Source: an uncultured Gemmataceae bacterium
GTDB lineage: Bacteria > Planctomycetota > Planctomycetia > Gemmatales > Gemmataceae
NCBI GenBank assembly: GCA_963750165.1
Contig: CAVVPN010000003.1
Coordinates: 2,624,001 to 2,688,000, forward strand
Direction of reading: 5' to 3'
DNA: 64,000 bases
Under the pieces are notes generated by a model. The model made no database searches. It had not been told where the DNA came from and was given only the letters and a program-made list of their open reading frames with translations. Each line of letters starts with the position of its first letter. Within the stretch, counting starts at the first letter, position 1. A program made the position numbers and the translations under genes. Shown here in pieces: positions 6,888 through 63,602 of the stretch.

Positions 6888-7373
6888 TCACGGCTGTTTC
6901 TGCCCCGGCGCCTCCATGTCCAGGTTGCCCATGCGCAGCACCAGCAGTGGCACCCCGCCGCTGCCGGGTAGCGTGACCGTCTTGACGATCTGCTTGCCAG
7001 CCGTCACGCGCCGGAAATCGTCGGCGGTCAGTTCGAGCGCCACGGCGTTGTGAGCCAGGAACTGCCCGGCCGCGGGGCCGGCGGCCGGCACCTCCAGCGT
7101 CGGGTACACTTCCAGCCCCGGGAAGCCGGCGATGTGGCTCAGCTTCAGCCGATAGACGGCGCCCTGGCGAAAGTTGTAGCGGGCCGGCGCCTCCAGCGGC
7201 GTCTCGGAGAAGCGGGCCTTGCCATCCCGTCCCACCACGAGCCAGCGAATCTGCATGCCCGAGGGGCCGACGAAGCGCACCTGCGTGCGCCCGGCGCCGG
7301 CCGGCTCCTGTGCCCCGGTGGCGGCGACGCAGGCGACACCGGCCACGACCATCACCAGCAGTTTGCGGCACAT
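6888..7373 (-). CDS. Hypothetical secreted protein
   Basis: Signal peptide; TQVRFVGPSGM...PARYNF.QG..YRLKL...YPTLEV pattern, which I recall from planctomycete hypotheticals. Confidence 0.7.
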   Translation of the reverse strand: MCRKLLVMVVAGVACVAATGAQEPAGAGRTQVRFVGPSGMQIRWLVVGRDGKARFSETPLEAPARYNFRQGAVYRLKLSHIAGFPGLEVYPTLEVPAAGPAAGQFLAHNAVALELTADDFRRVTAGKQIVKTVTLPGSGGVPLLVLRMGNLDMEAPGQKQP

Positions 7374-7403
7374 GTCCTTGTCCTCCGCTTCGGGCGACGC
7401 GAT

Positions 7404-7763
7404 TCACCCCTCGCCGTCCAGCGCCCGCAGCATCCGCTTCAGCGCGACCGTGCGGTACGCCTCGCGGACCAAACCGCACACTTCAGCCCAGTCGGTCTGG
7501 CCGTCGATCCGCAGCGACACCCAGCCCTGGTGGGCGGCGTAGGGCGTCGGGTAGAACCGGCCGTCTTTCAGGAGTTGCTCCTGCCGGTCGTGCCCCACCC
7601 GCAGGCCGAGAGTCGGGCCGTCTGCGTCGGCGCCGAACGCGGCGAATAGCTTCTTGCCGGCGCGGAAGGTCGGGTGGCCCCACGCCTCCACCTCGGCGGC
7701 CTCCGGCAACGCCAGACACAGGCCGCGCACCTGTTTCAACGCCCGATCGGATTCCCTGCTCAT
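7404..7763 (-). CDS. MmcQ/YjbR-family DNA-binding protein
   Basis: CLALPEA.E...WGHPTFRAGKKLFA...PY....GWV...DWAEV..LVREAYR. Confidence 0.88.
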   Translation of the reverse strand: MSRESDRALKQVRGLCLALPEAAEVEAWGHPTFRAGKKLFAAFGADADGPTLGLRVGHDRQEQLLKDGRFYPTPYAAHQGWVSLRIDGQTDWAEVCGLVREAYRTVALKRMLRALDGEG

Positions 7764-7919
7764 CAAGGTTCCCCCGGTTTTTCCCCGCCGCCCGACCGGC
7801 ACAACCCGGCGCCGGCCGCGGCGGAATCGCCCAGAAAACCTCACGTCCGCCGCCGCCGGGCACCGCCTCTGCAATGATCCCAGACGGTCGCCCGCATTTC
7901 CAGAGAAGTGAGGTGCTTC

Positions 7920-8108
7920 ATGTCACTCCGCATTCTGTTTGTGGCCCTGACGCTGGCGGCGCTGTCCGGCTGCCGCTGCTGTTCGCGCCCCGCCCCGCCG
8001 CCCTGTCCGCCGCCGCCGTGCGGCCAGCCGGCCGGCCCCGTCGGCGTGCCCGCCCTGCCGCCGCCCAGCGGCCCCGCCGTGCCGCCACCGCCGCCCGCGC
8101 CGCTGTGA
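7920..8108 (+). CDS. Small Pro/Cys-rich putative lipoprotein
   Basis: GAGGTG RBS; hydrophobic leader ending in lipobox LSGC; followed by a GC hairpin at ~8125-8150. Confidence 0.55.
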   Translation: MSLRILFVALTLAALSGCRCCSRPAPPPCPPPPCGQPAGPVGVPALPPPSGPAVPPPPPAPL

Positions 8109-8185
8109 GCCGTGTAAAAACGACCGCGGGGCTGGTGTCTCACCAGCCCCGCTGCGGCCATCGGTTCAAAACGGGAGGGCATTTT

Positions 8186-8338
8186 TTACAACCGCCGACT
8201 GAAATTCACCAGGAGAAGCGCCAGCCCGCGAAGGTGATCGACCTGGATCGTCACCGCCAGCGCCCGCGCCAGATCGGTTTGGCCCTGCTGCACCAGTTGC
8301 GCGACTTCCGAATAGGTTTGCGTAGCCGTCGTGTTCAC
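8186..8338 (-). CDS. Small hypothetical protein (50 aa)
   Basis: GTG start with GGAGG RBS; amphipathic helical sequence YSEVAQLVQQGQTDLARALA. Confidence 0.4.
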   Translation of the reverse strand: MNTTATQTYSEVAQLVQQGQTDLARALAVTIQVDHLRGLALLLVNFSRRL

Positions 8339-8541
8339 GATGGTTGCCTCCGGGTGATGAAGTTTGGGAACGCCAACCCAATCATTCCACGACCTGCTCG
8401 AACACGCCAGCGCTGTCGCGTCGATCTCGCGGGTTTTTCTCCGCGACCGATGTCCCTCACCCGTGTTCTGGTTCCGAAGCACAAATTGGCTGCTCTTTTC
8501 CCCGGCGGTTCATCTCGCCCCGCCGACCCAGCTTCCGGGTG

Positions 8542-8631
8542 GTAGCGGACAACAGCGAACCCCCGTTGTTAGTTTCGCGTGGACTCTGCCCGCGCGAAAC
8601 TAAAAACGGGGGTTCGCTGTTGTCCGGTAAC
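8542..8631. repeat. Long REP-like hairpin downstream of dxs
   Basis: CGGACAACAGCGAACCCCCGTT.TTAGTTTCGCG / CGCGAAACTAA.AACGGGGGTTCGCTGTTGTCCG, preceded by GTAG. Confidence 0.85.
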
Positions 8632-8633
8632 TC

Positions 8634-10550
<1,917 letters not shown>

Positions 10551-44807: not shown

Positions 44808-45107
44808 GCGAAAAGGGGGCCAGGTCAGGTTTCACACGATTTTGAGAATCGTATGAAAACTGACCTGGCCCCCCTTTTCGCTTCCGGCGCTGGCCGCGGC
44901 CTGCGGTGACGTGCAGACGCGCGGAGCATGCGGAGACTTCTCGTCACCAATTTAAGACTGTCCGGGTGGCTTGTCGTTTTCCCGGCGTTTCTTACTTGCA
45001 ATCCGAAAAGGGGGCGGTTACGCGGCCGCCAGCGTAAAACTGGGAAAACCGAGGCGCGGCGAGCGCCCCAATCCATGTTCGGCCTTGTAGCCGTAAATAA
45101 TGACCCC
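44808..45107 (-). mobile_element. Copy A (inverted, truncated) of a GGGGTCA-bounded non-autonomous element
   Basis: 74-bp hairpin 44808-44881, then the reverse complement of the shared body, ending TGACCCC at 45107. Confidence 0.8.
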
Positions 45108-45340
45108 TCTCTACAGGTCCCATCCCCGCCCCCGTCGCCTGTTACTTCATGCCCGGCGTCGGCTGGTACGCCCGTTCAGGGGAGTGCCACCCGACTGATT
45201 GTTGGAAAAAAATGTCCGAAAATACTTTTTCCGGCCCCGCCGGCTACTTCCGCATACCAGACTGAAGAGGGACGGATTTGGTCCACTCCCCGTAGCCGCC
45301 GCCCCCCACCCGCGCTTTCCTTTTCCCAACGGAGCAGCTT

Positions 45341-48300
45341 ATGTGGCCCGCGTTCCGCAGTCCGTCCTGTCGCCCACCGATTGCCCGCCCCCGCGGCGCC
45401 CGCGCCGCGGGCGCACCTCGCTCCACCTGGAGATGCTTGAGGACCGTACCGTCCCGACGAACCTGGTCTACTGGCACGGCGGCTCCATCCTGCAAAACGT
45501 CATCGCCGTCCCGACCTTCTGGGGCACCAGCTTCGCGTCGCAGTACAAGAGCCTGGAGACCCAGGAAACCAACTTCACGTCCTACCTCGTCAACAGTACC
45601 TACATGGACATGATGTCCGAGTACGGCACGCCGGCCACCTCGGCGATTGAGGAAACGGACCAGCCCGGCGGCGCTCCGGTCTTCACGTCCACCAACCACC
45701 CGGCCCACACCATCGGCCGCGGCTCCGTCGGCGACGTGGAGGTGGACACCGACCCCGGCGCGCCGACGACCGGCACCACCGTCACGGACGGCCAGATTCA
45801 GGACAACATCGCCGGCGACCTGTTCGCCAACACTCTGGACTCGCTGGGCGTGCCGGGCGTCTCCGCCCTCGACGAGAGCTTTTTCGACAACAACTACCAG
45901 TCGCTCTACCCCGACGTGCTGTTCGTCGTCTACCTGCCGCCGGGCGTCAACGTGCAGGACGCCAACGGCCAGACCCTCTACCAGTTCCAGAACGGCTCGG
46001 AGGAGCGCGGCTATCACGGCACGTTCGGCCTGGACCAGCAGGGCAACGTGGACCGCTTCAGCAACGGCAGTGACGCGCTCGGCTCCAACGACGTTTTCGT
46101 CCACTACGCGGTTGTGCCGTACCCCACCGGCGGCGTCAGCACGACCAACTTCGACCAGGTGACCATTACCGCCTCGCACGAGATCATGGAGGCGGTTACC
46201 GACCCGCTGCAGGAGACGGACAACAGCGGCAACATCACCCAGGCCGGCTTCATCATCGACAACCCGACGGCCTTCGACAGCCACCTCGGCAGCGGCGACA
46301 ACGAGGTCGGCGACCTGGTGGAGTTCCAGCCGCCCAACCTGTCGGTCTCGGAGCTGGGCGGCTACGCCGTGCAGAACATGTTCTCCAACGTGGTCTACAA
46401 CGCCAACCACGCCTCGCACGGCATCAAGGCGCCCGCCGGCTCCACGAGCTACGGCGGCTTCGCCCTGGCCGACGGCGACGACAACCCGCAGCACACGAGC
46501 GCACCCGTGCTCGGCAGCACCAGCACCTCGGTCACCACGCTGCCCAACGGCCACACGCTGACCATCTCCACGACGACGCTGGCCAACGGCACCGTCACCG
46601 GCACCTTCAGCGCCCAGCTGGACCCGTCGGGCCTCGGCACCACCGAGGCCGACGTCAAGCCGGTGGACGGCATCAACGTCTACAGCTTCAACGAGACCAT
46701 CACGCCGCAGGGCATGCTGACCGGCAACTTCACGATCACGGCCGAGGGCAAGGCACTGGGCTACACGGTGCCGGACGCGCCGTCGCTGGTGCCCAGCACT
46801 GCCCTGGCCCTGACCGCCGTGTCGCCCAACAACACCGCGACCAGCTGGACGTTCTCGGGGCAGCTGGCCAGCTTCACCGATGCCGCCGGCGCCAGCGACG
46901 CCGCCAGCATCAACTGGGGCGACGGCAGCCTCACGGCCGGCACCATCGTCGCCGACGCGAACGTGCCCGGCCAGTTCGACGTGAAGGGCACGCACACCTA
47001 CGCCGCCGGCTCGACCGGCACGAACCGCTCGGTGTACGTCATCATCCACAAGTCGGACGGCAGCCAGGTGGTCGCCGACGCGCAGATCATCAACGGCGTC
47101 GCGGACCTGGTGGCGACGGCGCTGCCGGCGGACGAGGTGCAAGGCTCGTCGGCGGTGGTCGCCCTGGACGTGTTCTCGGACCTGGGCGGCCTGCACTCGG
47201 CCAGCTGGTACACGGCGACGGTGAACTGGGGCGACGGCACGGTCACGTCCGGTTCGGTGGTCGCGTCGGGCAGCCAGTTCGTGGTGCTGGGCAACCACCC
47301 CTATCAGCAACCCGGGCACTACCACGTCACGGTCACCGTGCAGGACATCGACAGCAGCAAGGACACGTTCCCGAGCACCGTCACGGTGCGGGCCACCCAG
47401 CCGAGCGCCATCGGCGGCTTCGACCCGACGACGGCGACGTGGTACCTGCACAACGGCGTCGGCGGTGGCGCCGCGGACGCCGGCTCGTTCCAGTACGGCG
47501 CGCCCGGCTGGATTCCGGTGACCGGCGACTGGACGGGCAGCGGCCACGAGGGCATCGGCGTCTACAACCCGGCGACGGCGACGTGGTATCTGCGCAATTC
47601 GGTGACGCCGGGCCCCGCCGACGAGGTGATCCAGTTCGGGGCGCCGGGCTGGCTGCCGGTGGTCGGCGACTGGAGCGGCGGCGGTCACACCGGCATCGGC
47701 GTGGTCAACCCGAGCACCGACACGTGGTATCTGCGCAACGAAGACAGCCCCGGGGCCGCGGACGCGGGCACGTTCCAGTTCGGCGCCCCCGGCTGGCTGC
47801 CCGTGGCGGGCGACTGGAACGCGACGGGCCGGGCCGGCATTGGCGTCTACAACCCGAGCACGGCGACGTGGTATCTGCGCGGCGAGGCCAGCGGCGGGCC
47901 AATCGACGTTGGCACCGTGCAGTACGGTGCGCCGGGTTGGACGCCGATCGTCGGCGACTGGGGCGGCCACGGCCACACCGGCCTGGGCATCCTCAACCCG
48001 GCCGGCGGCGCCTGGTATCTGCGCAACGAGGTGACGGCTGGCCCACCGGACGCCGGGGTGTTCGGCTACGGTTCGCCGGGCTGGCTGCCGGTGGCGGGCG
48101 GGTGGATCGGTTCGGCCCGCAACGGCATTGGCGCCGTCAACCCGGCGACGGCGACGTGGTATCTGCGCAACCAGGCCAGCGCCGGCGGCGTCACGGTCGG
48201 CGCCTTCCAGTTCGGCTCGGCCGGCTGGATTCCGCTGGTGGGCGACTGGAACGGCACCGGCCACGACGGCATCGGCGAGTACGACCCGAGCACGGCGACG

Positions 48301-48822
48301 TGGTATCTGCGCAACGAGGACAACGGCGGCCCCGCCGACGCGGGCGTCTTCCAGTTCGGGGCGCCGGGCTGGATTCCGGTGGTCGGCGACTGGACGGGCG
48401 CGGGCCACACGGGCATCGGCGTCTTCGACCCGCGCACCGCCACGTGGTATCTGCGCGTCGAGGCCAGCGGCGGCCCCGCCGACGCGGGCGTCTTCCAGTA
48501 CGGGGCGGCCAACTGGATTCCGGTGACCGGCGACTGGACGGGGGCCGGCTACACGGGCATCGGCGTCTTCGACCCGGGCACGGCGACGTGGTATCTGCGC
48601 ACGCTGGCCAACCCGGGTCCGGCCAACGCGGTGTTCCAGTACGGGGCGCCGGGCTGGCTGCCGGTGGTCGGCGACTGGTCGGGCGACGGCTTCGACGGCA
48701 TCGGCGTGTACTACCCCGGCAGCGGGGCGTGGTATCTGCGCTCCACCCCGAGCGCGGGGCCGCAGACGATGGCGTTCGGTTACGGGTCGCCGGGCTGGAA
48801 GCCGGTTGTTGGGGAGTTTTAG
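45341..48822 (+). CDS. Large secreted protein: LEDRTVP export motif, HExxE (Phi-1/EXORDIUM-like) domain, PKD/Ig-like domains, about 10 beta-propeller-type repeats
   Basis: LHLEMLEDRTVP; SHEIMEAVTDP; INWGDG/VNWGDG; ~48-aa PVVGDWxGxG..GIGV..P.TATWYLRN repeats; start uncertain (ATG 45341 with frameshift, or GTG 45343). Confidence 0.85.
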
Positions 48823-48833
48823 GGAGAGGAAAC

Positions 48834-49282
48834 GGGGTCAGGTTTATTTACGGCTACAAGGCCGAACATGGATTGGGGCGCTCGCCGCGCCTCGGTTTTC
48901 CCAGTTTTGCGCTGGCCGGCGGCCGCGTACAGACGTGTGTGTCTTGCGCGGCCGCCGACCAGCGCAACCGCCCCCTTTTCGGATCGCAAGTGAGAAACGC
49001 CGGGGAAACGACAAGCCACCCGGACAGTCTTAAATTAGTGACGAGAAGTCTCCGCATGCTCCGCGCGTCTGCACGTCACCGCAGGCCGCGGCCAGCGCCG
49101 CGACGTGCGCCGGCGTCGTGCCGCAGCAGCCGCCGACCAGCACCGCCCCCGCCCGCACCACCTCCGGTAACCAGTCCGCCAGCTGCCCCGGTGTCACCGG
49201 ATACCCCCAGGCGAAAAGGGGCCAGGTCAGTTTTCACACGATTTTGAGAATCGTATGAAACATGACCTGACCCCCTTTTCGC
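48834..49282 (+). mobile_element. Copy B (most complete) of the GGGGTCA-bounded element
   Basis: Starts GGGGTCAGGTTTATTTACGG; internal hairpin; HMT fragment; terminal 72-bp hairpin 49211-49282 containing CCTGACCCC. Confidence 0.85.
49030..49208 (-). pseudogene. 3' fragment of a homocysteine S-methyltransferase gene (also at 54264-54442)
   Basis: Translates YPVTPGQLADWLPEVVRAGAVLVGGCCGTTPAHVAAL; GGCCGT.P.H is the HMT Zn-binding C-terminal motif. Confidence 0.85.
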
Positions 49283-49483: not shown

Positions 49484-52400
49484 TTATTCCGGGGGCTGAT
49501 TTTCTTCCTGGGCTGTCGGGAGCAGTTGCCCGAGAAGTTTCGCAATCTGCTCGGCCTCGGGTAAGCCGTGCTCCCGTGCAGTTTGCAGTGCCCAGAAGAG
49601 ATGGCCCAGCGCCGTTTCTATCTCCTCTGTACGGCCGCGCTGCAACAGCGTCAGGCCGATGTTGGTCCGGCAGACGATCAGTTCGCGCACGTCGCCGAGG
49701 CGCTCGTAGACGGGCAGTTGCTTCTCCTGGCGGATGGCCAGGGCCTCGTCCAGCCGGCCCCGCGCGAACAGGATGTCGGCGACCTTGCCGTGCGCGACCG
49801 CCAGGGAGCGCACGTCGCCGAGGCGCTCGTAGACGGGCAGTTCCTTCTCCTGACGGATGGCCAGGGCCTCGTCCAGCCGGCCCCACCGGAACAGGATGTC
49901 GGCGACCTTGCCGTGCGTGACCGCCAGGGAGCGCACGTCGCCGAGGCGCTCGTAGACGGGCAGTTCCTTCTCCTGGCGGATGGCCAGGGCCTCGTCCAGC
50001 CGGCCCCGCGCGAACAGGATGTCGGCGACCTGGCCGTGCGTGACCGCCAGTTCGCGCACGTCGCCGAGGCGCTCGTAGACGGGCAGTTGCTTCTCCTGGC
50101 GGATGGCCAGGGCCTCGTCCAGCCGGCCCCACCGGAACAGGATGTCGGCGATGTCGCCGTGCGTGACCGCCAGGGAGCGCACGTCGCCGAGGCGCTCGTA
50201 GACGGGCAGTTCCTTCTCCTGGCGGATGGCCAGGGCCTCGTCCAGCCGGCCCCGCGCGAACAGGATGTCGGCGACCTTGCCGTGCGTGACCGCCAGGGAG
50301 CGCACGTCGCCGAGGCGCTCGTAGACGGGCAGTTCCTTCTCCTGACGGATGGCCAGGGCCTCGTCCAGCCGGCCCCGCCGGAACAGGATGTCGGCCAGAC
50401 GGCCGTTGGCAACGGCTTCTTGATTCTCTTTGCGGAGTTTTGCGAATAGCCCGATGGCCTGGCGAATGTACTGTTCCGCCTTCGCCACGTCTCCCTTGCT
50501 AAACAGCAGTTCGCCAAGTTCGGCCAGGGCCTGCGCCCGTTCTTCGGTATCCTGTGTCCCCGCCACTTCCAGGGCGCGTTCCAGGAGTTGCTGTGCGTCC
50601 TCGGCATCCCCGACAATCTGACAGGACAGTGCGGAAAGACGAAGAAGGTGAAACGGCGGCACGGCGTGCGCCTGGTCAATGACTGCGATGGATTGCCTCC
50701 CCAGGGCGGCGGCGTCCCGGTAGGCGTGCCGGGCGCGCAACATGCCGACCACCTCGCCGGCATCGGCGGCCACGACCTCGGCGTCGCGGGCCAGGATGCC
50801 CATGCGCGTCAATTCTCTGTTCAGGGGCAACGGTCGGGCCTGCGCCCCCGCCGCCCCGCCCCACGCGGCAAACAGTGGCTTGCAAACCAGCGTCGCCAGT
50901 TGCGCTGCTTCCGCCTGGTTCATGATGACGAACCTTCCTGTTCCAGTTGAGGCCGCACCAGTGGATCGACCAGCGCGTGATCGTGGCCGCGGCGGAAATC
51001 GAGCGGGTTTTCAAACCGATTGAGCAGGCCCAGGTCGAACTGGCGTTGCACGGCCGCGACGGCCGCCGCGGCATCCGCATGGTGCCGCGGATGAAGAAGT
51101 GGCAGCACCGCTTGCGGCGCCGGGATTTCAAACAGCGTCGAGCGGCGCAGCAGTTCGCGCTCATCGGGTGTGAGCAACCCGAGCAGTTCGTGGATCGCGA
51201 CGATGTTGAGGAACTCGCGCAGGCGCGGTTCGCTGGTCTGTCCTCGCGTCCGGAATTCCTGGGCGGCCTCCCGGAAGCGCTGGAAGGCGTCCGCGCTTTC
51301 GGCCCGCAGGCGGGCCGCGCGGCTCATGAGGCTCGGACTGCCGAACGCATCGTCGATGGCGCCGGCAAGTTCCTGGAAGAGTTGCTGCTCACTATCGAGC
51401 GCCTCCTGGGGGCTGATACCCGGGTTGTGCTTGATCTGCTCCGCGACCCGTTGCCGGGCCAGTTGCAACGTCTGCCGCAGCATTTCGCCGGGGGCCATGT
51501 CCGGCAGCTGGTAGAACGCCAGGCGCCGGTCCGCGTCCTTGCCGTTCACGACGCAGGTGAAGCGATACCGGCACGTGATCAGCAGCAAGGAGTCGTGTTC
51601 CGTGGTCGCGAAGGCGGTCACCAGGGCGGCGACCCCCGCCTCCAGTTCCGGCCTGACGCGGTGCAGCTTGCCGGGCATCGATTCCAGGGCACGTTCAAAA
51701 TCGTCCACGACCAGGAGGATCGGGCGCTGCTCGGCGCGGCCGCCGTGCGTGTGCAGCTCGCGCAAGGGGCCGCGCAACAGCCGGGCCAGCACCAGGGTGA
51801 AGGCGTCAGCCGTCAACTCCCCGGAGCCGGCCTCGTCGAGGATGCGCTGGACCTCCACGGCGCCGGCGTGTCCCTCCAGCGCGGTGGACGAGCGGAGCGC
51901 CCGCAGGATGCCCGCCGGCGTGTAGTCGTTGAATACGACCACCAGGTCGTAGGATGGGAAGCGCGAGGCCAGGCGGCAGGCGAGACTGCTCTTGCCGTGT
52001 TGCCCGAGTCCGTGGATCACCGTGGGTTGGTGCGTGCGCAGACAACGCAGGACGTCCTGCAAGGGGCGGCGGCGGCCCACAAACTCATACCGCGACGCGA
52101 CGGGGATCTGCTTGTTGATCCTGTCGAGGAATTCCTGATCCGCGCGGCCGGCGTCGTGCCAGTGGCGGCGCCGGTCGCCGCCGGTGATCTTGCCGCCGCC
52201 CTGCGCCCAAAAAAGACGCGGGCCTTGTGCCATTCCGTTTTTACTTCCCTGTCTCCGTGGCGGCCCAGCGTTTTCCGGGCCTGGGCGACGGCGGCCTCCA
52301 GCGACTCCCGCATGGCCAGGCGCCGGTACAGTTCGGCGGCGAAACAGGTGGCGCCCACGTCGCTCACCTTGCCCGCCCAGCCGAGGACGGCCGGGAAGCC

Positions 52401-53210
52401 CTTCAGGGCCAGGGCGCCGGCGAGCGAACCGAGCAGCTGATCCGGCTGGGCAGTGGTGCACGCCGACAGGAACAGCAACCGCGGCCGAAACTCGCCGAAC
52501 TGCTCCGCGATCTCCCGCGCCCCGACCAGCTCCGGTTCGCCGAGTTCGGTCTCCAGCGCCAGCACGGGGCGGTCGGTCAGGTTGCCGTGGCACGATAGGT
52601 GGACGATGTCCACGCCGCCGTCGCCCTCGGTCTCCTCCTGAATGCGCCGGGCGAGCGCCTCGAGGTTGCCGGTGTCCTCGCACAGGAAATCGACCCCGGT
52701 CGCGTGAACAGCTTGCAGGATGGCCTGTTCTTCCGCGTCGTGGTCGAGCGGCATGGCGTTGCCGCGCGGGTCGGCGGCCATGAAGACCATGGCCGGGCGG
52801 TAGCGCGACGCGGCGGGCGGTTCCCGTCGGGGGAGCAGGCGGCGGACCACGGAAAACGACAGGAACTCTGCCTCCGCGAGGTAGCCGTCCTCGTCGCGGA
52901 GCAGTTCCCAGGATACGTCCAGGAACAGCCGGTTGCCGCCGGCTTCGAGGACGAACTCGAGCCATAGCGCGTCCGGCGTTTCGTCGCGGTAACGGCCGAG
53001 CAGCCGGTCGGCACCATCGAGCCATTGATAGAGTTCCCGGCCGATCTGAGAACGCCGGTCGGAAGTTGCCGTGCCGCCGGCGTAATCCTGGAGCCAGGTG
53101 GCGAACCGCCCGGCGTCGGCGGGGGTGGTAGGCCGCTGACCCAGGTCGCGCCCGTCGCGCGTGGCGCGGAGATGGGTCGCGGACAGTGAAATGCAAACGG
53201 GCGAGGCCAC
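49484..53210 (-). CDS. CHAT (caspase-like) protease - STAND/P-loop NTPase - TPR protein, split by apparent frameshifts near 52210 and 50925
   Basis: IVHLSCHG and LFLSACTT dyad; FVGRR, HGLGQHGKSSLA, LLVVDDFE, LITCR; six 40-aa TPR-like repeats. Confidence 0.87.
49681..50397 (-). repeat. Six near-identical 120-bp coding tandem repeats (TPR units)
   Basis: GRLDEALAIRQEKxLPVYERLGDVRxLAVxHGxxADILF repeated with 120-bp period. Confidence 0.95.
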
Positions 53211-53264
53211 GGGTCGCTCCCGATCTGAGAAGCAGGGGCCGGAGGTCGCACGCGGTGGGCACGG

Positions 53265-53711
53265 TTACTGCGCAGGGTTCGCCACCGCCGCCGTCTCCGG
53301 GATGACGGCCACGTCCTTCATGACCTTGCAGGTCAGGTCGTGGAGCTGCTCGGCGTCGCCTTCGTGGAGGAACAGCGCCTTGTCGCCGATGATCGCGCGG
53401 ATGGTGGTCGGCAACTTTTGCTGGGCCCAATGGATCAGACCCAGCCAGTGCAGAACAAGGGCCTCGCGCCGCTTCTCGTACCCTTCGCGGATCTTATCGT
53501 AGACGTGGAACAGCACCACGGCGACTTCCAGAACCACGAGGGTTGCGTGGAGCGGGTCGATCATCTTGTCCGCGCCCGTTCCGGCCAGATCGGTCGATGG
53601 AGCGGCAGTGCGGATGGTGGGTCTGATCTTGAACCGGGCTTCCATCAGGTCGGCGAACTGCTGTGCGACGATGGCGCTGTCCTTGCCCTGGACGCGGAAC
53701 TCGATAGACAT
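53265..53711 (-). CDS. Small hypothetical protein upstream of the CHAT-STAND-TPR gene (possible co-effector/substrate)
   Basis: AGGGGG RBS; 148 aa with central hydrophobic helix LHATLVVLEVAVVLFHVY; 54 bp from the CHAT gene. Confidence 0.72.
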   Translation of the reverse strand: MSIEFRVQGKDSAIVAQQFADLMEARFKIRPTIRTAAPSTDLAGTGADKMIDPLHATLVVLEVAVVLFHVYDKIREGYEKRREALVLHWLGLIHWAQQKLPTTIRAIIGDKALFLHEGDAEQLHDLTCKVMKDVAVIPETAAVANPAQ

Positions 53712-53838
53712 GGTGCCCCCCTTGGGCTTCTGGTTGGGATTGCTTTCAGGTTTATTTTCTCCCCAACCTCCATGATGTCAAGCCCCGGGTAGTCCCGGGC
53801 ACGGAAAAGGGTCCGATTAAAAGGAAGGGACAAAGAGG

Positions 53839-54104: not shown

Positions 54105-54472
54105 GGGGTCAGGTTTATTTACGGCTACAAGGCCGAACATGGATTGGGGCGCTCGCCGCGCCTCGGTTTTCCCAGTTTTGCGCTGGCCGGCGGCCGCGTA
54201 ACCGCCCCCTTTTCGGATTGCAAGTGAGAAACGCCGGGGAAACGACAAGCCACCCGGACAGTCTTAAATTAGTGACGAGAAGTCTCCGCATGCTCCGCGC
54301 GTCTGAACGTCACCGCAGGCCGCGGCCAGCGCCGCGACGTGCGCCGGCGTCGTGCCGCAGCAGCCGCCGACCAGCACCGCCCCCGCCCGCACCACCTCCG
54401 GTAACCAGTCCGCCAGCTGCCCCGGTGTCACCGGATACCCCCTTTTCGCTTCTTCCTGACCCCCTTTTTCGC
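54105..54472 (+). mobile_element. Copy C of the GGGGTCA-bounded element (hairpins collapsed)
   Basis: Near-identical to 48834-49208 but lacking one arm of the internal hairpin; ends CCCCCTTTTCGC..CCTGACCCCCTTTTTCGC. Confidence 0.85.
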
Positions 54473-54521
54473 TTCTTCCTGGCTTCGTAAACCTCACCTT
54501 CTCACCTGCAAGGGCGCCGAA

Positions 54522-54680
54522 TCTCGACGTGTGAAAAAGTTGGCCCCCTTGGCCTCCTTGGCCCCCTTGCTGTGACGGGCGGCGCCGTTTGTTGTCGCGC
54601 CGTGCCACCCGTCCAGAGCCACGGCGCCAACTCTCGACGTGTGAAAAAGTTGGCCCCCTTGGCAGTCTTGGCTCCCTTGC
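54522..54680 (+). repeat. Two copies of the 49-bp head + triad repeat
   Basis: TCTCGACGTGTGAAAAAGTTGGCCCCCTTGGC...CTTGC at 54522 and 54632. Confidence 0.88.
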
Positions 54681-54902
54681 TCGGTCAGCCGACGCTGGCC
54701 GGCGACTCCCAGCGCCACTCCGACAGCGCCTGGAGACAGCGCCAGGCAATTCGGCCCAGCAAAAATCGTTGACGGTGTCATGGGCAGGCCGTAGACTCGA
54801 TGACGTTTAATGCACCATTGCGCCTGGCCCCATTGAAGTTGCGTGCGCTGGCTGTTTTCGTGCTGGGGATGCTTGGGAAGGTCGTCCAAGGAGTCTCGTC
54901 CC

Positions 54903-57286
54903 ATGGGTGGTTGGGTCAAATCAACCCGCTTCTGGATGCCCGCCCTGCTGGTGGCCGGCGGACTGGTCGGTTTCCATGGGGCACACCAGGCGCCCCAGCC
55001 TGGCCCTGCGCAGGAAGCGCAACCGGACAGTGCCACCGTCCAGAAATTTGTCACCCAGCATTGCCTCAGCTGCCACAATGGCGATGACAAACGGGGCGGA
55101 CTGGCGCTCGACGCCATCAGTGCCGATGACGTGGGCAAGCACGCGGCGATCTGGGAAAAGGTCGTGCGCAAGCTCGTCGCGCGGCAAATGCCTCCCGCGG
55201 GCAAGAAGCGTCCGGACGAGAAGGCGTATGAAAAATTCGTCGCCGCGCTCGCAACCGCCCTGGACCGCGCGGCCGCCGCACACCCCAATCCCGGCCGAAC
55301 CGTCACCTTGCGCCGCTTGAATCGCACGGAGTATCAGAACGTCATCCGCGACCTCCTGGCGGTGGACGTGGACGCCGCGGCCCTGCTGCCGCAGGACGAA
55401 GCTAACCACGGCTTCGACAGCGCACCGCTGGGCGATCTGTCACCGACACTGCTGGAGCGCTACGTCACGGCGGCGCAGAAGATCAGTCGTCTGGCCGTCG
55501 GTCGGGCGCCGACCACGCCCAACAGCGATACGTTCCGGACCCGGCCGGACCTGACGCAGGAAGGCCACGTTGCCGGGCTGCCCCTGGGGACGCGCGGCGG
55601 CCTGCTGATTCCGTACACCTTCCCGCAAGACGGCGACTACGACATCCAGGTCTGGCTGACGCGCGACCGCAACGAACACATTGAGGGTTTGCGCGAACCG
55701 CACGAACTGGAAGTGCTGCTGGACCGCAAGCGCGTGGCGGCGTTCACCGTCAAACCGCCCGCCAGGGGCCAGTCCGATGCCCAGGTCGATAAAAACCTGA
55801 AGGCCCGCGTCACGGTGGCGGCCGGGCTGCACGACCTGGGCGCCACGTTCGTGCAGCACCCGGCGTCGTTGCAGGAAACCAAGCGCCAGCCGTATCCGGC
55901 GCACTGGAACCTGCATCGGCACCCGCGCAAAACGCCGGCGGTCTACCAGGTGTCGATCACCGGCCCCTACAACGCGAAAGGGCATGGCGAGACCGCCAGT
56001 CGCCGCCGTCTGTTTATCTGCGCACCGACCGGGCCGAAGGACGAAGAGGCTTGCGCCGAAAAAATCCTGTCCGCGCTGCTGCGCCGGGCCTACCGCAAGC
56101 CGGTCACCGCTGCCAACCTCGACAAGGTGATGAAGTTCTATCGGCAAGGCGCAAGGCCGGGGATTTCGACGCCGGCATTGAAATGGCCGTGAGTGCCGTG
56201 CTGGTGAATCCGCAGTTTCTGTTCCGCATCGAACGGGACCCGCCCGGCGTCGCTGCGAAGACCGCCTATCGGGTCAGCGACCTGGATCTGGCATCCCGAT
56301 TGTCCTTCTTCCTGTGGGGCACCATCCCGGACGACGAACTGCTGGACCTGGCCGAGCGCAACGAACTCCGCAAGCCCAAAGTGTTTGAACAACAGGTGCG
56401 GCGCCTGCTGGCGGACGAACGCACGCGCAACCTGGCGACCAATTTCGCAGTGCAATGGCTGCACCTCCGCAACCTGGAGTCGATCACGCCGGACCTGCGG
56501 TTGTTCCCGGATTTCGACGACAATCTGCGAACCGCCTTCCGGCAAGAAACCGAACTGTTCGTGGACAGTATGCGCCGCGAGGACCGGAGCGTGCTGGACC
56601 TGCTGTCGGCGGACTACACGTTTCTCAACGAGCGCCTCGCCAAACATTACGGCATCCCGCACGTCTATGGCGAGCGCTTTCGGCGCGTGGCGCTCGGTGC
56701 CGACCGGCAACGGGGCGGCCTGCTGCGGCACGGGAGCATTCTGACGGTCACGTCCTACGCCACGCGGACCTCACCGGTGGTGCGGGGCAAGTGGGTCCTC
56801 GAAAACTTACTCGGAACCCCACCGCCGCCCCCGCCGGCGGACGTGCCGGCGCTGCGGGAGAACACCGTGGGGACGAATCTGACGATCCGCGCGCGCCTGG
56901 CCCAGCATCGCTCCAACGCCGCCTGCGCGAGTTGCCATCGGCTGATCGATCCGGTGGGCTTCTCGCTGGAACAGTTCGACGCGGTGGGCCGCTGGCGAGA
57001 TCGGGACGAGGGGCAGCCGGTCGATGCGGCCGGGGGGCTGCCGGACGGCAGCGCGTTTGAGGGCGTTGCCGGACTTGAGAAGGCGCTGCAGCAGCGGCCA
57101 GAGTGGTTTGTCCGCACGCTGACCGAGAAACTTTTTACCTTCGCACTGGGCCGGGCGCCGGAAGAATATGATGCCCCGGCCATCCGCAAGATCGTCCGCG
57201 ATGCGCGGGCGAACCATTACCGCTTTTCCGCGCTGATCGTGGGCCTCACGACCAGCACACCGTTTCAAATGAGGAGGTCGCAGTGA
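54903..57286 (+). CDS. DUF1587/1595/1592/1588/1585 (PSD2-5) cytochrome c protein (frameshift near 56150)
   Basis: CLSCH, LRRLNRTEYQN.IRDLL, LASRLSFFLW, TSPVVRGKW, CASCHRLIDP.GF. Confidence 0.92.
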
Positions 57287-59179: not shown

Positions 59180-60566
59180 GGCAACGTTTCAAAATTAATC
59201 CGCAGTTCCCTTCTACAATAACCCTGGCCCAACCGGGGGCCTGGTTTGGAAGGGAGGCAGAGCCGTGGACATCCACCAATGCCAATGCCCTCACTGCCGA
59301 CAAGGTGCGGACCACCCCGAACGCGCCCTCCATTACCGGCTCAACCTTCTCCTGAGCCGGTTGGATGAGCACCAACGCCGGTGGTTGGCAGCCTGGGAGT
59401 CCCAGAAGGTCGGCCGCGGCGGCGACCGCCTACTGTCCCTCATCACCGGCCTGAACGTGGAAACCATCCGGCGCGGTCGCCGGGAACTCGAGGACTCCCT
59501 GCGGGACTGCCCCCCGGATCGCATCCGCCGGCCCGGGGCAGGACGGCCCGCTGTGAAAAAAAAGTGCCGGGCCTCATGAACGCTTTGAGGCAGCTGGTTG
59601 AGGAGCAGACCGCCGGCAGCCCGCAAACCTGTCAGAAGTGGGTGCGCCACAGCGTCGCCTACCTGAGCACGCGGTTGCAAGGCCAAGGCTTCGCCGTCAG
59701 CCCCGCCACGGTCTATCGCCTGTTGGACGACCTGGGCTATTCGCTCAAGGCCAACCGCAAGCGCTTCACCGGCCCGCCTCACCCAGACCGGGACCGGCAG
59801 TTCGCGTACATCGCCGGGCAGCGGCGCCGCTTCGCCATCCTCGGCCAGCCGGTGATCAGCGTGGACAGCAAGAAAAAGGAGTTGATCGGCAACTTCAAGA
59901 ATGCAGGGCGGCAGTGGTGCCGGCACGCCACGGAGGTCAACGCCCACGACTTCCTGGACGACGCCTTGGGCCGGGCCGTCCCCTACGGGGTCTACGACGT
60001 GCGCCAGGACCGCGGCCATGTCTACGTGGGGTTGTCCGCCGACACCGCGGCGTTCGCGGGGGACGTGATCGGCCGGTGGTGGCGCGGCGAGGGACGGCTG
60101 TGGTACCCGCAGGCCGACGAGTTGCTGATCCTGTGCGACGCGGGCGGGAGCAACAGTTGCCGCGTGCGGTTGTGGAAACAGCGCCTCCAGGAGGAGTTGG
60201 CCGACCGCTGGGGGCTGTGGGTGACGGTGTGCCATTACCCGCGGGGGGCGTCGAAGTGGAACCCGGTGGAGCACCGGCTGTTCAGCCGCATCAGCGTCAA
60301 CTGGGCGGGGGAGCCGCTGCGAACCGTGGAGACGCTGTTGGCCTGCATCCGGGGCACGGAGACGGACGCCGGTTGGGCGGTACGTGCGACGTTGCTGGAC
60401 GCGGAGTACGCGAAGGGGGTCAAGGTGCCGGACGCAGAAATGCAGACGTGGCGCCTCCAAAGGCATGCCGTCTGCCCCAGTTGGAATTACACCATCAAGC
60501 CACGTTGGACAATATTCTAACATCAGCACCCAGGTGTAAGCTGCGGACTAATTTTGAACGGCTGCC
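59180..60566 (+). mobile_element. ISAzo13-family insertion sequence, 1387 bp
   Basis: Imperfect TIR GGCAACGTTTCAAAATTAATCCGCAG vs GGCAGCCGTTCAAAATTAGTCCGCAG; 3-bp TSD TAA. Confidence 0.93.
59265..60520 (+). CDS. ISAzo13 transposase (orfA/orfB joined by a probable -1 frameshift at A8G, 59556-59564)
   Basis: RIRRPGAGRP, HPDRDRQF, ISVDSKKKELIGNFKN.G, DAGGSN, SKWNPVEHRLFS. Confidence 0.92.
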
Positions 60567-61211: not shown

Positions 61212-63128
61212 ATGATCGATAGCCTTACTGTCGCCGAAGTCGTTTCTGCTATCCTCGAACAGGGTGAGATAACCAAGGACCAGATTCTGGAGACATGGGG
61301 CATCGCGGAAGAGGACTACAAGGAACTGCAGAAACAGGTTCTGAAGGGCAATCAGTCCATTGAAAAGGGGTCAAGGCACAGCGGCGGGTTCGTCGTCAAG
61401 AAGCGCAAAGGGAGACTGCCGGAGGAGAGCACCACCGAAGTGCTGCTGCTGCGGACAGACTGGGAAAAAACTGCCGTGGCGCGACTGGCCGAACTACTGC
61501 AGCACGGGAAACTCGAAGACTTGCTCGGCACGTTGCTACAAACAGTGCGGCAGGTGCGTCTTGCGGAAACAGGAGTCGATCGCCGCGGCCAGAAGTCAGA
61601 GTTGGCCACGGCGCTCGTTCTTCAGCGCGGGATCGATTTGTTCTGTGAAACCGATATCCGCGAAGCCGTGGGCAAGTCGGCGAGCGTTCCCGCGCCCAGT
61701 CGCTGGCACCCAGGTAAGCCGGCCGCAATCGACTTCGTCGCTAACACCGGCTTTCCCCGCGAACTAGCGGGGTTACCCACTGAGGAAGGACTGCCCGATT
61801 TTGAATACCTGGAAGGCCGATTTCGGCTGCGCCCCCTTGAGCCTTTCCAGTGCGAGGTGAAGGAGGAACTGAGCCATACTCTTCAAGATGCAGGCAAGCG
61901 CACGATTGTGACCTTGCCGACGGGGGCCGGCAAGACCCGCGTCGCTGTCGAGACCATTCGCGATTGGCTGACGAATCGGTATGACGTTGCTGCCCAGGCC
62001 CTCACAGGCGGTGTTGTCCTGTGGTTGGCGCATACAGAGGAACTGTGCGAGCAAGCATGCACTTGCTTCAAGCAGGTTTGGGAAGGTTCGGAGAGCGTTT
62101 GTCCGCTGCTCCTAGTGCGCTTCTGGGGCCGCTACACACAGGACCTCGCAAAACACCGGCAGACGCTGGAGCAGGTTCTGACGCGCCCGGGTGTCCTGGT
62201 CTCCACACCGCAGCGGATCATGAACCTGCTGGACCGGCGAATCGAAGGCAGCGAGGCGGTACTCGCTGACTTGACCGGGACCCTGGGCCTGGTAGTCATT
62301 GACGAAGCACATCGTGCCGCGGCGCCTTCGTACCAGCGCATCATGGACAACCTGATTCCAGAGGAGCGCCCGCTGTCGGTAGTCGGCCTCACGGCCACGC
62401 CGTTTCGCATGGAGTACGTAGGAGACGACCCCGAAGAGGGAACACGGGAGCTCAAGGAGATTTTTCACCACCTGATCGAGCCGATGCAGACCCTGGGTTC
62501 TGAGCCAAGACTCAAGCTGCAAGACATGGGCGTCCTCGCGCGGCCGGAGTTGAGAACGATCAAGACGCAGACAAAAATGCGGCTGCCGACGGTGCCCACC
62601 AAGGGAACGCTTTCCGAGGAGGAATTGGAGCGGCTTGATCGAATTCTGGCCGTGCGCACGGACAACACTCCACGGCGCCTCGCGATCCTGAAAGAATTGC
62701 TACCGCTCGCCAAGAACCCTGGACATTCCATCCTGTACTTCGGCCCCACCGTGCGCGATGCCGAATGCATGGCCTATCTATTGCGCCGGGAAGGAATCCC
62801 CGCGGCAGTCGTGAGCGGCAACACCCGCGATGTTACACGGCGCCAGGTGGTCACCGAGTTTAAGCAGAAAAAAATCCGGGTGCTTTGTAACTGCGAAGTT
62901 CTGACTACTGGCTTCGATGCCCCCCAGATCAGTCACATCGTGATGGGACGGCCGACGGTCAGTCGGGTTCTGTACGAGCAGATTGTCGGCCGCGGGCTCC
63001 GCGGGCCGAAGTTTGGCGGGACAGCCACCTGTGTCATTCTCAACTGCGAGGACAACTACACGGGTGACCCACCACCGCTTGGTTATGAATCATTCCGCAG
63101 GGTTTGGCTCGGATCCACGGGTCGGTAG
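61212..63128 (+). CDS. SF2 DEAH-box helicase (ResIII/Helicase_C)
   Basis: LPTGAGKT, DEAH, GLTATP, VLTTGFDAP, QIVGRGLR; ~200-aa unexplained N-terminus. Confidence 0.92.
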   Translation: MIDSLTVAEVVSAILEQGEITKDQILETWGIAEEDYKELQKQVLKGNQSIEKGSRHSGGFVVKKRKGRLPEESTTEVLLLRTDWEKTAVARLAELLQHGKLEDLLGTLLQTVRQVRLAETGVDRRGQKSELATALVLQRGIDLFCETDIREAVGKSASVPAPSRWHPGKPAAIDFVANTGFPRELAGLPTEEGLPDFEYLEGRFRLRPLEPFQCEVKEELSHTLQDAGKRTIVTLPTGAGKTRVAVETIRDWLTNRYDVAAQALTGGVVLWLAHTEELCEQACTCFKQVWEGSESVCPLLLVRFWGRYTQDLAKHRQTLEQVLTRPGVLVSTPQRIMNLLDRRIEGSEAVLADLTGTLGLVVIDEAHRAAAPSYQRIMDNLIPEERPLSVVGLTATPFRMEYVGDDPEEGTRELKEIFHHLIEPMQTLGSEPRLKLQDMGVLARPELRTIKTQTKMRLPTVPTKGTLSEEELERLDRILAVRTDNTPRRLAILKELLPLAKNPGHSILYFGPTVRDAECMAYLLRREGIPAAVVSGNTRDVTRRQVVTEFKQKKIRVLCNCEVLTTGFDAPQISHIVMGRPTVSRVLYEQIVGRGLRGPKFGGTATCVILNCEDNYTGDPPPLGYESFRRVWLGSTGR

Positions 63129-63231
63129 CGCTGCGATGTCGCCGGCGAGAATGCGTGGGAAGGGAAATGGTGAAAAATGGTGGAAAAGAGTGAAAATGGG
63201 GACGTCCGCGTCCCCTTTTTCTACCCGGCGA

Positions 63232-63379
63232 TCTCGACGTGCGAAAAAGTTGGCGTTCTTGGCGTTCTTGGCGTCCTTGATTCGACAATCGGCGTCACCG
63301 GGCGACGCGCGGTGACGGCCTGGGAGCCATTCTCGACATGTGAAAAAGCTGGCTCCCTTGGCTCCCTTGGCTCCCTTGC
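63232..63379 (+). repeat. Two copies of the 49-bp head + triad repeat
   Basis: TCTCGACGTGCGAAAAAGTTGGCGTTCTTGGC... at 63232 and TCTCGACATGTGAAAAAGCTGGCTCCCTTGGC... at 63331. Confidence 0.88.
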
Positions 63380-63602
63380 TCGGTCAATCCCTGCCGCGCC
63401 AGGACCGGCCGTGCCAGCCAGCCCAGGCTGGGGTTGAGCCCACGATGCCGCTGTATTCCCACTCCTGGCGCGATTGCTACCCTGTCCGCCGGCGGATAGA
63501 CTCGGGTAAGGAAGAAGTCCGTCATACCGCGCCTGAGCGGCCCGGGACCCCGCGATTTCGCGAAGGACAGGATCTCCCGGCGCTAATTCGGAGTCGATTG
63601 CC

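Follow-up and report, generated by a model that had tools for sequence, protein, structure and literature searches.

The minus strand of a 64,000-nt stretch of DNA from an uncultured Gemmataceae bacterium (assembly GCA_963750165.1, contig CAVVPN010000003.1, positions 2,624,001 to 2,688,000; hereafter the window) carries three co-oriented genes, which encode a small single-helix protein, a CHAT protease joined to a STAND nucleoside triphosphatase (NTPase), and a TPR protein. The dyad of the protease and the ATP motifs of the NTPase are intact, and the pairing of the small partner with the protease is conserved among relatives. We consider it reasonably probable that the three genes constitute an EACC1-type protease-gated cell-death defence module, which uses a CHAT protease and, in this clade, a detachable sensor. 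The original prediction, made from the letters alone, had described a two-gene system with one protease-NTPase-TPR chain interrupted by two frameshifts. Instead, three genes are found, with the sensor naturally separate, and only the first interruption (break 1) is a one-base frame break, whereas the second (break 2) is a natural stop/start overlap.

The CHAT-STAND core and its frame break

In the list of open reading frames (ORFs), the 148-aa ORF of the small protein is followed, after a gap of 54 nt, by three reading-frame pieces that together amount to 1242 aa. The first piece contains a CHAT domain (Pfam PF12770, 96 bits against a cut-off of 24) with the catalytic motifs HLSCHG at 52601-52584 and LSAC at 52469-52458, in agreement with the original prediction. 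The His/Cys dyad, H208 and C251 here, is kept in 61 of 61 partner-bearing loci. Two acidic residues, E161, which opens the helix that follows the first strand, and D284 in the motif W-x-x-x-V-x-D, are likewise present in 61 of 61 loci. The CHAT domain is a predicted protease with an intact dyad, and its best solved match is SAVED-CHAT (PDB 8TL0, E 4.7e-5), which shares both acidic motifs.

The NTPase piece has a Walker A motif GLGQHGKS (52011-51988), the expected Walker B motif LLVVDD (51717-51700), and in addition FVGRR, ITCR, GSP and DPLVR. The motifs FVGR, Walker A GxxxxGK[ST], Walker B hhhhDD, T-x-R and GxP, which we take to be those named for STAND proteins, are invariant or nearly so in 41 aligned members and the window. 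The P-loop, thought at first to be atypical, is a regular GxxxxGKS of the kind typical of the family (consensus GxGRQGKSS). At E <= 1e-3 Pfam assigns AAA_16 to 39 and nSTAND1 to 22 of the 41 members, the window copy falling under both cut-offs. A PDB sequence search with the NTPase yielded weak Walker A matches only, one with the 70%-identical relative P0002 yielded nothing meaningful, and among viral contigs 72 pattern matches were obtained, in none of which the large protein was confirmed. One homologue, P0007, has a second NTPase-like region behind its TPRs.

Break 1 lies between the CHAT and NTPase pieces. In two sets of related loci (the 80 top-ranking of 401 matches and the 80 top-ranking of 277, a choice that favours intact genes), a single frame runs across its column in 160 of 160, and CHAT and NTPase share one chain in all 42 longer homologues among the best 8000 candidates scored. 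Relatives have an interrupted sequence at the site of the T6G3 run of the window. Comparison of 70 ORFs of a complete relative with 83 kb of the assembly revealed five distinct clean frame breaks (eight listed, two dropped for overlapping query ranges and two merged as the same site on both strands), a rate that predicts about 0.2 breaks per 3.7 kb. The sole EF-Tu gene detected in the assembly is also frame-broken (G000 C12:333036-333047). A neighbouring gene of the window (54843-57286, planctomycete DUF1587/1592/1588/1585) has a frameshift within its DUF1595 domain, which likewise points to indel errors in this assembly. Since the column is unbroken in 160 of 160 loci and the EF-Tu gene is broken too, break 1 is quite likely an assembly or sequencing error. 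It could be a real recent lesion, which would count against our proposal for this copy: the system here would then be a recent pseudogene whose CHAT-STAND core is not made. The low measured rate of errors speaks for such a lesion, as do the patchy occurrence of the locus among relatives and its position between repeats. We regard it as unlikely, with an appreciable chance left to it, as the only EF-Tu gene found and the neighbouring gene (inside one Pfam domain) are broken likewise, a second lesion is absent, the codon bias is intact (GC content at third codon positions 0.84-0.86) and the end branch in the tree is ordinary. A pseudogene would concern the window copy only and is compatible with the model for the family.

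The TPR gene as a probable separate sensor

At break 2, the stop codon of the NTPase piece overlaps the start codon of the TPR gene (TGA and ATG within ATGA, 50923-50920). Four other loci, L004, L005, L006 (the same as L085) and L084, have a stop within a few codons of this site and start a separate TPR gene at the identical column through GTGA or ATGA. Each of the four has a Shine-Dalgarno (SD)-like site, with a duplex energy of -7 to -10.5 kcal/mol against a generic anti-SD sequence. P0002 also ends at the position of break 2, as judged from its protein end only. In L084 two TPR genes stand in tandem (7316-8998 and 8995-10314), both with the N-terminal arm and both GTGA-coupled; between them, 17 of the first 570 nt (12 of the first 190 residues) are changed and the number of repeats is unequal, and this locus alone among 119 has two copies of the arm. 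All split carriers are planctomycete loci related to the window. Breaks near the NTPase end in L057, L062, L102, L128, L082 and L013, which lie at other positions or have no coupled start, were not counted as splits, nor were the short complete genes L122 and L135.

Since break 2 recurs in relatives, the native products are most likely a core of about 763 aa and a TPR sensor of 479 aa rather than a chain of about 1240 aa. The length originally predicted for the rejoined pieces is borne out by their sum; the single native chain is not. On these alignments break 2 is read as a natural gene boundary, a genuine one that polishing of frameshifts here would wrongly delete. We consider it very improbable that a programmed -1 frameshift, or an error, accounts for break 2 and that the long CHAT-STAND-TPR chain is the working product. 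Single chains do occur in most family members and two close relatives read through the site (P0003 as a protein, L013 in DNA), but the four related loci share the start column, each with an SD-like site and with no common slippery sequence, and in L084 an identical kind of coupling joins the second TPR gene to the first, where no NTPase frame exists.

In a tree of 15 rows (a quick tree of 47 rows was also made), eight sequences of the planctomycete clade form one branch (100/100) on a background that is otherwise fused. The read-through forms P0003 and L013 are sisters nested among six split forms, and 200 of 200 bootstrap trees require two changes, one split and one re-fusion. Re-fusion is only favoured, because a tree that groups the split forms as one clade was not rejected (approximately unbiased test, p-AU 0.086).

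The C-terminal TPR array was correctly foreseen (TPR_12) and comprises five full repeats of 41 aa and a terminal one. Among the five full repeats 8 codons vary, 7 of which alter the residue, which suggests, on small numbers, a diversifying binding surface. A split between switch and sensor would offer a bacterial NLR a route to multiply its sensors without copying the switch, and for engineering the junction indicates a point at which STAND receptors can be split.

The small partner and its predicted cleavage site

The family of the small protein was collected with a hidden Markov model (HMM), seeded with the C-terminal tail of P0020, a large protein with a look-alike small domain fused at its C-terminus, and iterated on the ORFs of fetched loci. 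This HMM recognises the protein of the window (Table 1), for which a single-sequence search found only itself among 131 candidates and pairwise BLAST against P0020 found no match. The family comprises 682 clusters at 50% identity (E <= 1e-3), and most members are stand-alone proteins of 120-150 aa. It has no name in Pfam or NCBIfam, the NCBIfam matches being incoherent, in keeping with the uncharacterised protein that was anticipated. Its upstream position and its central hydrophobic helix were likewise confirmed: the best 19-aa Kyte-Doolittle mean is 1.92 in the window and 2.03 on average in the family, and one such helix, with values of 1.38-2.58, occurs in 63 of 63 members.

The small gene adjoins the protease gene in 85 of 160 loci, 49 times upstream and 36 times downstream, a count weakened by the training of the HMM on the same loci and by kin that are not independent. 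Among loci with 900 nt on both sides, the partner flanks the protease in 50 of 76, and the pairing is seen in several phyla, which upholds the predicted linkage of the small gene to CHAT genes. When the loci are grouped into clusters at 70% identity, of which 55 could be tested, the partner is adjacent in 42, absent in 12 and mixed in 1. In 400 kb of control DNA the small family had 0 hits. Because the HMM was derived from these loci, a reverse test was performed from the small gene alone, in samples of 400, 300, 400 and 250 genomes (10-16 candidates scored each) and in a plasmid collection. Seven credible loci were obtained; the large gene is adjacent in four by HMM (L197, which is L021, L204, L209 and L210) and by eye in a fifth, L198. 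Six weak genome hits (E > 1e-5, each with an internal stop) were excluded from this count, one of which, L199, is presumably an HPr protein by its motif. The similarities of partner and CHAT domain are correlated (rho 0.49, a value inflated by kin; distant pairs 0.24, shuffles <= 0.16). On this co-occurrence the small gene is read as a dedicated partner of the protease-STAND gene.

The pairing is not obligatory. The partner is missing in 26 of the 76 fully flanked loci, genomes G996 and G997 carry such proteases with a partner found nowhere in them, and the small genes of L205 and L208 stand solo in genome G1387, which has its protease-STAND gene on another contig; all this weighs against a fixed two-component unit and against our proposal. 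One of these two solo small genes is without the K-x-x-D-P linker. Of the 26 loci without a partner, 3 have an alpha/beta-hydrolase-type gene or domain in its place (L121:3981-4730, weak Abhydrolase_6; the C-terminus of L149, DUF900; L105:8399-9703, HSMGG motif only), and an alpha/beta-hydrolase is another protease-activated death effector (PMC12642450). The L198 gene (221-1006, minus strand, genome G465) encodes a small-family domain with a C-terminal TIR_2 domain, and the gene next to it begins like the N-terminus of a CHAT protein and runs off the contig. In P0168 the small domain lies behind a region of 265 aa that has no assigned family.

We read the partner as a distant branch of the EACC1 superfamily, on the grounds of profile similarity. 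Alignment by hhalign with a profile of ten EACC1 hits gave a probability of 68.6% (E 4.6e-5, 96 columns end to end), which rose to 76.9% with a larger alignment and dropped to 23.9% without three K/R-type EACC1 rows (K-A-x-D motif). Reversed controls reached at most 0.4%, and block-shuffled ones scored at most 18.7 against 32.7. In the language-model features of Atlas, all ten best named hits of one family member belong to the EACC1 family; this score (0.88, 169 shared features) is a lead only. Besides the dependence on three rows, two observations tell against the assignment. The Pfam family EACC1 (PF19953) matches nothing in the window and 2 of 63 members at E <= 0.1 (best 0.011), and the glycine patch of EACC1 is absent from the helix, for which the consensus is AxAALxLSIPxAxLA and the window has HATLVVLEVAVVLF. 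The EACC-like nature that had been suggested for the small protein is thus supported by profile and features and fails at the Pfam cut-off. As to gene order, the EACC1 rule of a 5' position applies to the window and 49 loci, while the small gene is 3' in 36 loci, and the protease is CHAT. No family match to bacterial gasdermin, Csx30, Pepco/Trypco or CATASP appears among the listed Pfam and NCBIfam hits of the 63 members (25 of 34 Pfam families being shown), PADLOC found none of these in the four small proteins tried, and a PDB sequence search with the small family gave nothing meaningful. The gasdermins and Csx30 invoked originally are analogies only.

The linker ahead of the helix contains a conserved basic residue. 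Lys or Arg is found 1-3 residues ahead of the helix-capping D52 column in 62 of 63 members, compared with 43 of 126 background stretches, and the residue that follows it is A, G or S in 47 of the 62. In 149 further representatives, Lys or Arg stands 1-9 residues before the hydrophobic stretch. In clan CD proteases the P1 residue is held at two spots, which are acidic in Arg-cutting enzymes and Arg in caspases, and separase, gingipain and MALT1 hold a P1 Arg at these two positions (PMC4626109). By motif, E161 and D284 of the CHAT domain map to the same positions, so that the basic residue before the partner helix appears to match the invariant acidic residues of the protease. The specificity of CHAT proteases is varied, with Met or Leu in Craspases and Arg in separase (PMC11506125), and the text available of bioRxiv 2023.06.23.546230 did not reveal where SAVED-CHAT cuts. 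We predict a cut after K49, which would release pieces of about 5.3 and 11.1 kDa.

There is a slim chance that the same module cuts after the conserved Asp (D52) and that the Lys or Arg is merely an upstream recognition residue. Asp occupies this column in 55 of 63 members, and the Ktedonobacter racemifer EACC1 has R46-x-x-D49 and is reported to be cleaved at Asp49 (PMC12642450). Lys/Arg is kept better than Asp, however, the spacing between the two varies from 1 to 3, and the pocket positions of CHAT are acidic, not basic. The residue after the Asp column is usually Pro, which is disfavoured by caspases at that position. A cut after Lys/Arg, our preferred assignment, is a precise and testable prediction, and it offers a candidate substrate for one CHAT protease, whereas most have no known substrate.

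Proposed mechanism, surroundings and known systems

Based on these comparisons, we propose the following sequence of events. The TPR protein would dock on the CHAT-STAND core through its N-terminal arm. Upon the binding of a foreign, probably phage, protein, STAND and CHAT would be switched on, and CHAT would cut the linker of the partner after the conserved Lys/Arg, K49 here. The freed hydrophobic helix may then enter the membrane and oligomerise, and the infected cell would die. The sensor of this planctomycete clade would be a separate, translationally coupled and duplicable gene, and one core may therefore serve several sensors. The patchy occurrence of the family (400 genomes of the phylum gave 2 strong hits) and a plasmid copy between recombinase and Tni genes fit a defence role. 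A naturally intact pair in a cultured and harmless organism, WP_059399768.1 with WP_059399767.1, is found on plasmid p4 of Azospirillum brasilense Sp7. More tentatively, we envisage in Gemmataceae an NLR with a plug-in sensor, in which the TPR protein acts in trans, tandem sensors as in L084 share one switch, and a Lys/Arg-specific, separase-like CHAT protease arms an unnamed and widespread EACC1-like pore family that at times bears a TIR domain.

Several further points weigh against the proposed module. Trigger, sensor docking, cleavage, pore and anti-phage defence are all steps that we infer. PADLOC 2023, named as a check with the original prediction, matches no system here: its library, which predates newer Avs models, gave no NTPase match for the window pieces, P0003 or the Azospirillum protein. 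No defence island lies beside the locus within the window, except for a helicase about 8 kb off.

The small protein could alternatively be a membrane anchor or a cleavage-released scaffold and not a pore, with toxicity arising from whatever it clusters (a fused TIR domain, for instance) or from further substrates of the protease. The TIR_2 fusion of L198, the large N-terminal regions of P0020 and P0168, the 26 loci that do without a partner and the membrane-sensor role proposed for EACC1 (Kaur et al. 2020, PMC7159879) would all suit such a role. We find it improbable, as most members stand alone at 120-150 aa with nothing to cluster, the EACC1 that was tested is itself a toxic pore (PMC12642450), and partnerless loci sometimes have another known death effector. 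It is quite improbable as well that the module serves stress or development as a proteolytic signalling switch and is not an anti-phage system. An NLR-like system has been co-opted for the release of gene transfer agents (PMC13236601) and some STAND clades are non-defensive (PMC13581612), but no sigma factor is present among the flanking ORFs examined, the very patchy distribution and the plasmid copy between mobile genes speak against it, and 7 of the 8 variable repeat codons change the amino acid. We retain the EACC1-type cell-death module as the preferred reading.

The features of the locus are collected in Table 1. The host assembly has 9.6 Mb in 12 contigs and a single copy of each locus part, and the closest loci are in other Gemmataceae genomes, including Fimbriiglobus and Urbifossiella. 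In the 148-aa partner an N-terminal alpha/beta part is followed by the linker, which ends in K49-M50-I51-D52-P53, the hydrophobic helix (about residues 53-71) and a C-terminal alpha/beta part. One promoter candidate of the type listed was found in 5 kb, compared with 0.2 expected from shuffles.

Table 1. Features of the locus, in positions of the window
Feature	Position	Strand	Remark
Sigma-70-like promoter candidate ahead of the small gene	53754..53781	-	TTGACA-16-GAAAAT; consensus match only
Small partner gene, 148 aa, EACC1-like family	53265..53711	-	53 bits against the family HMM
CHAT (caspase/separase-like) protease domain	52206..53210	-	dyad H208/C251; acidic E161 and D284
Break 1	52200..52215	-	one-base frame break in T6G3 run, near 52206
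STAND NTPase module and helical region ending DPLVR	50920..52205	-	stop codon 50922-50920
Break 2	50920..50945	-	ATGA stop/start overlap; SD-like AGGAAGG upstream; short hairpin over start codon
TPR sensor gene, 479 aa	49484..50923	-	N-terminal arm of ~170 aa, then 41-aa (123-nt) repeats
Repeat copy of ~370 bp, downstream side of the locus	48834..49208	+	
Second direct copy of the ~370-bp repeat, upstream side	54105..54442	+	37-bp internal deletion

Further copies of the ~370-bp repeat lie at 44885-45107 of the window and at G000 C12:63773-64134 and C4:530280-530417. Within the repeat are the 3'-terminal ~138 nt of a gene for homocysteine S-methyltransferase, which is present intact at C4:529570-530430; the ORF beside that copy presumably encodes a REP-associated transposase, as its beginning resembles one. 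The repeat may be a small mobile element that has captured flanking DNA. An abundant repeat family of ~110-180 bp occurs at 54508-54727 and 63218-63426 of the window and, genome-wide, in dozens of copies of 70-87% identity. At 6-8 kb upstream of the locus there are an ISAZ013-family transposase and a ResIII/DEAD-type helicase (59381-60520 and 61212-63128); the helicase may be part of a defence system. On the other side, 45199-48822 encodes a 1207-aa protein with PKD-like domains and repeats of 48 aa (144 nt), probably a surface protein.

The closest known counterpart is the pair of EACC1 and caspase-Avs12 of K. racemifer, in which a phage tail connector is reported to activate the protease, EACC1 to be cleaved at the putative Asp49 site, and the C-terminal piece to be toxic and to make liposomes leak (Evans et al. 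2025, PMC12642450). Similar to that pair, a small non-enzymatic single-helix protein lies here beside a cysteine protease-STAND-sensor system, and the partner resembles K. racemifer EACC1 in size, in the position of the linker and in the motif R-x-x-D before the helix. With the Pfam EACC1 members it has weak end-to-end profile similarity, while the family itself lies outside Pfam EACC1. The present system differs in its CHAT protease (the word CHAT is absent from the main text of PMC12642450), in the variable gene order, in a predicted cut after Lys/Arg rather than Asp, and in the separate sensor gene of the clade of the window. No paper joining CHAT and EACC1 was found (one unrelated match), and the large supplement of Evans et al. 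may list the family.

Like the Avs proteins, the system follows an effector-STAND-TPR logic with TPR sensors; unlike them, described as single chains with a C-terminal sensor (PMC13581612), it has a detached sensor. The single chain is present in most other family members and absent in the window, L004, L005, L006 and L084, and the core, which matches no PADLOC model, has received no Avs number. We found no paper with a STAND protein whose TPR sensor is a separate coupled gene, and the large supplements of PMC13581612 may list the family. The text available of that paper mentions "split proteins" once, in its methods for Avs7/Dsr1, so split STANDs are not unheard of. With SAVED-CHAT (PDB 8TL0) and the Csx29/Csx30 Craspase, the protease shares the CHAT His/Cys dyad and a dedicated neighbour, which is cut in those systems (bioRxiv 2023.06.23.546230; PMC11506125). 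Activation there comes from CRISPR signals or target RNA, and the substrate is a caspase or an anti-sigma factor, whereas no CRISPR link was seen at this locus.

The EACC1 systems described by Kaur et al. (2020, PMC7159879) from actinobacteria and from other bacteria of multicellular habit likewise combine a constant small single-helix protein with a protease of the caspase superfamily, to which STAND and repeats may be fused. Their EACC1 is the 5' gene, has a glycine-rich helix centre and goes with up to 50 protease fusions; the family here has a helix with A/S/I-P, occurs in either order and, in the loci examined here, accompanies almost only one CHAT-STAND-TPR family. Since the layout was predicted by Kaur et al. 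and shown by Evans et al., the kind of system is known. The present family would extend the protease-to-pore logic of EACC1 to CHAT proteases and to about 680 clusters that are unnamed in current libraries.

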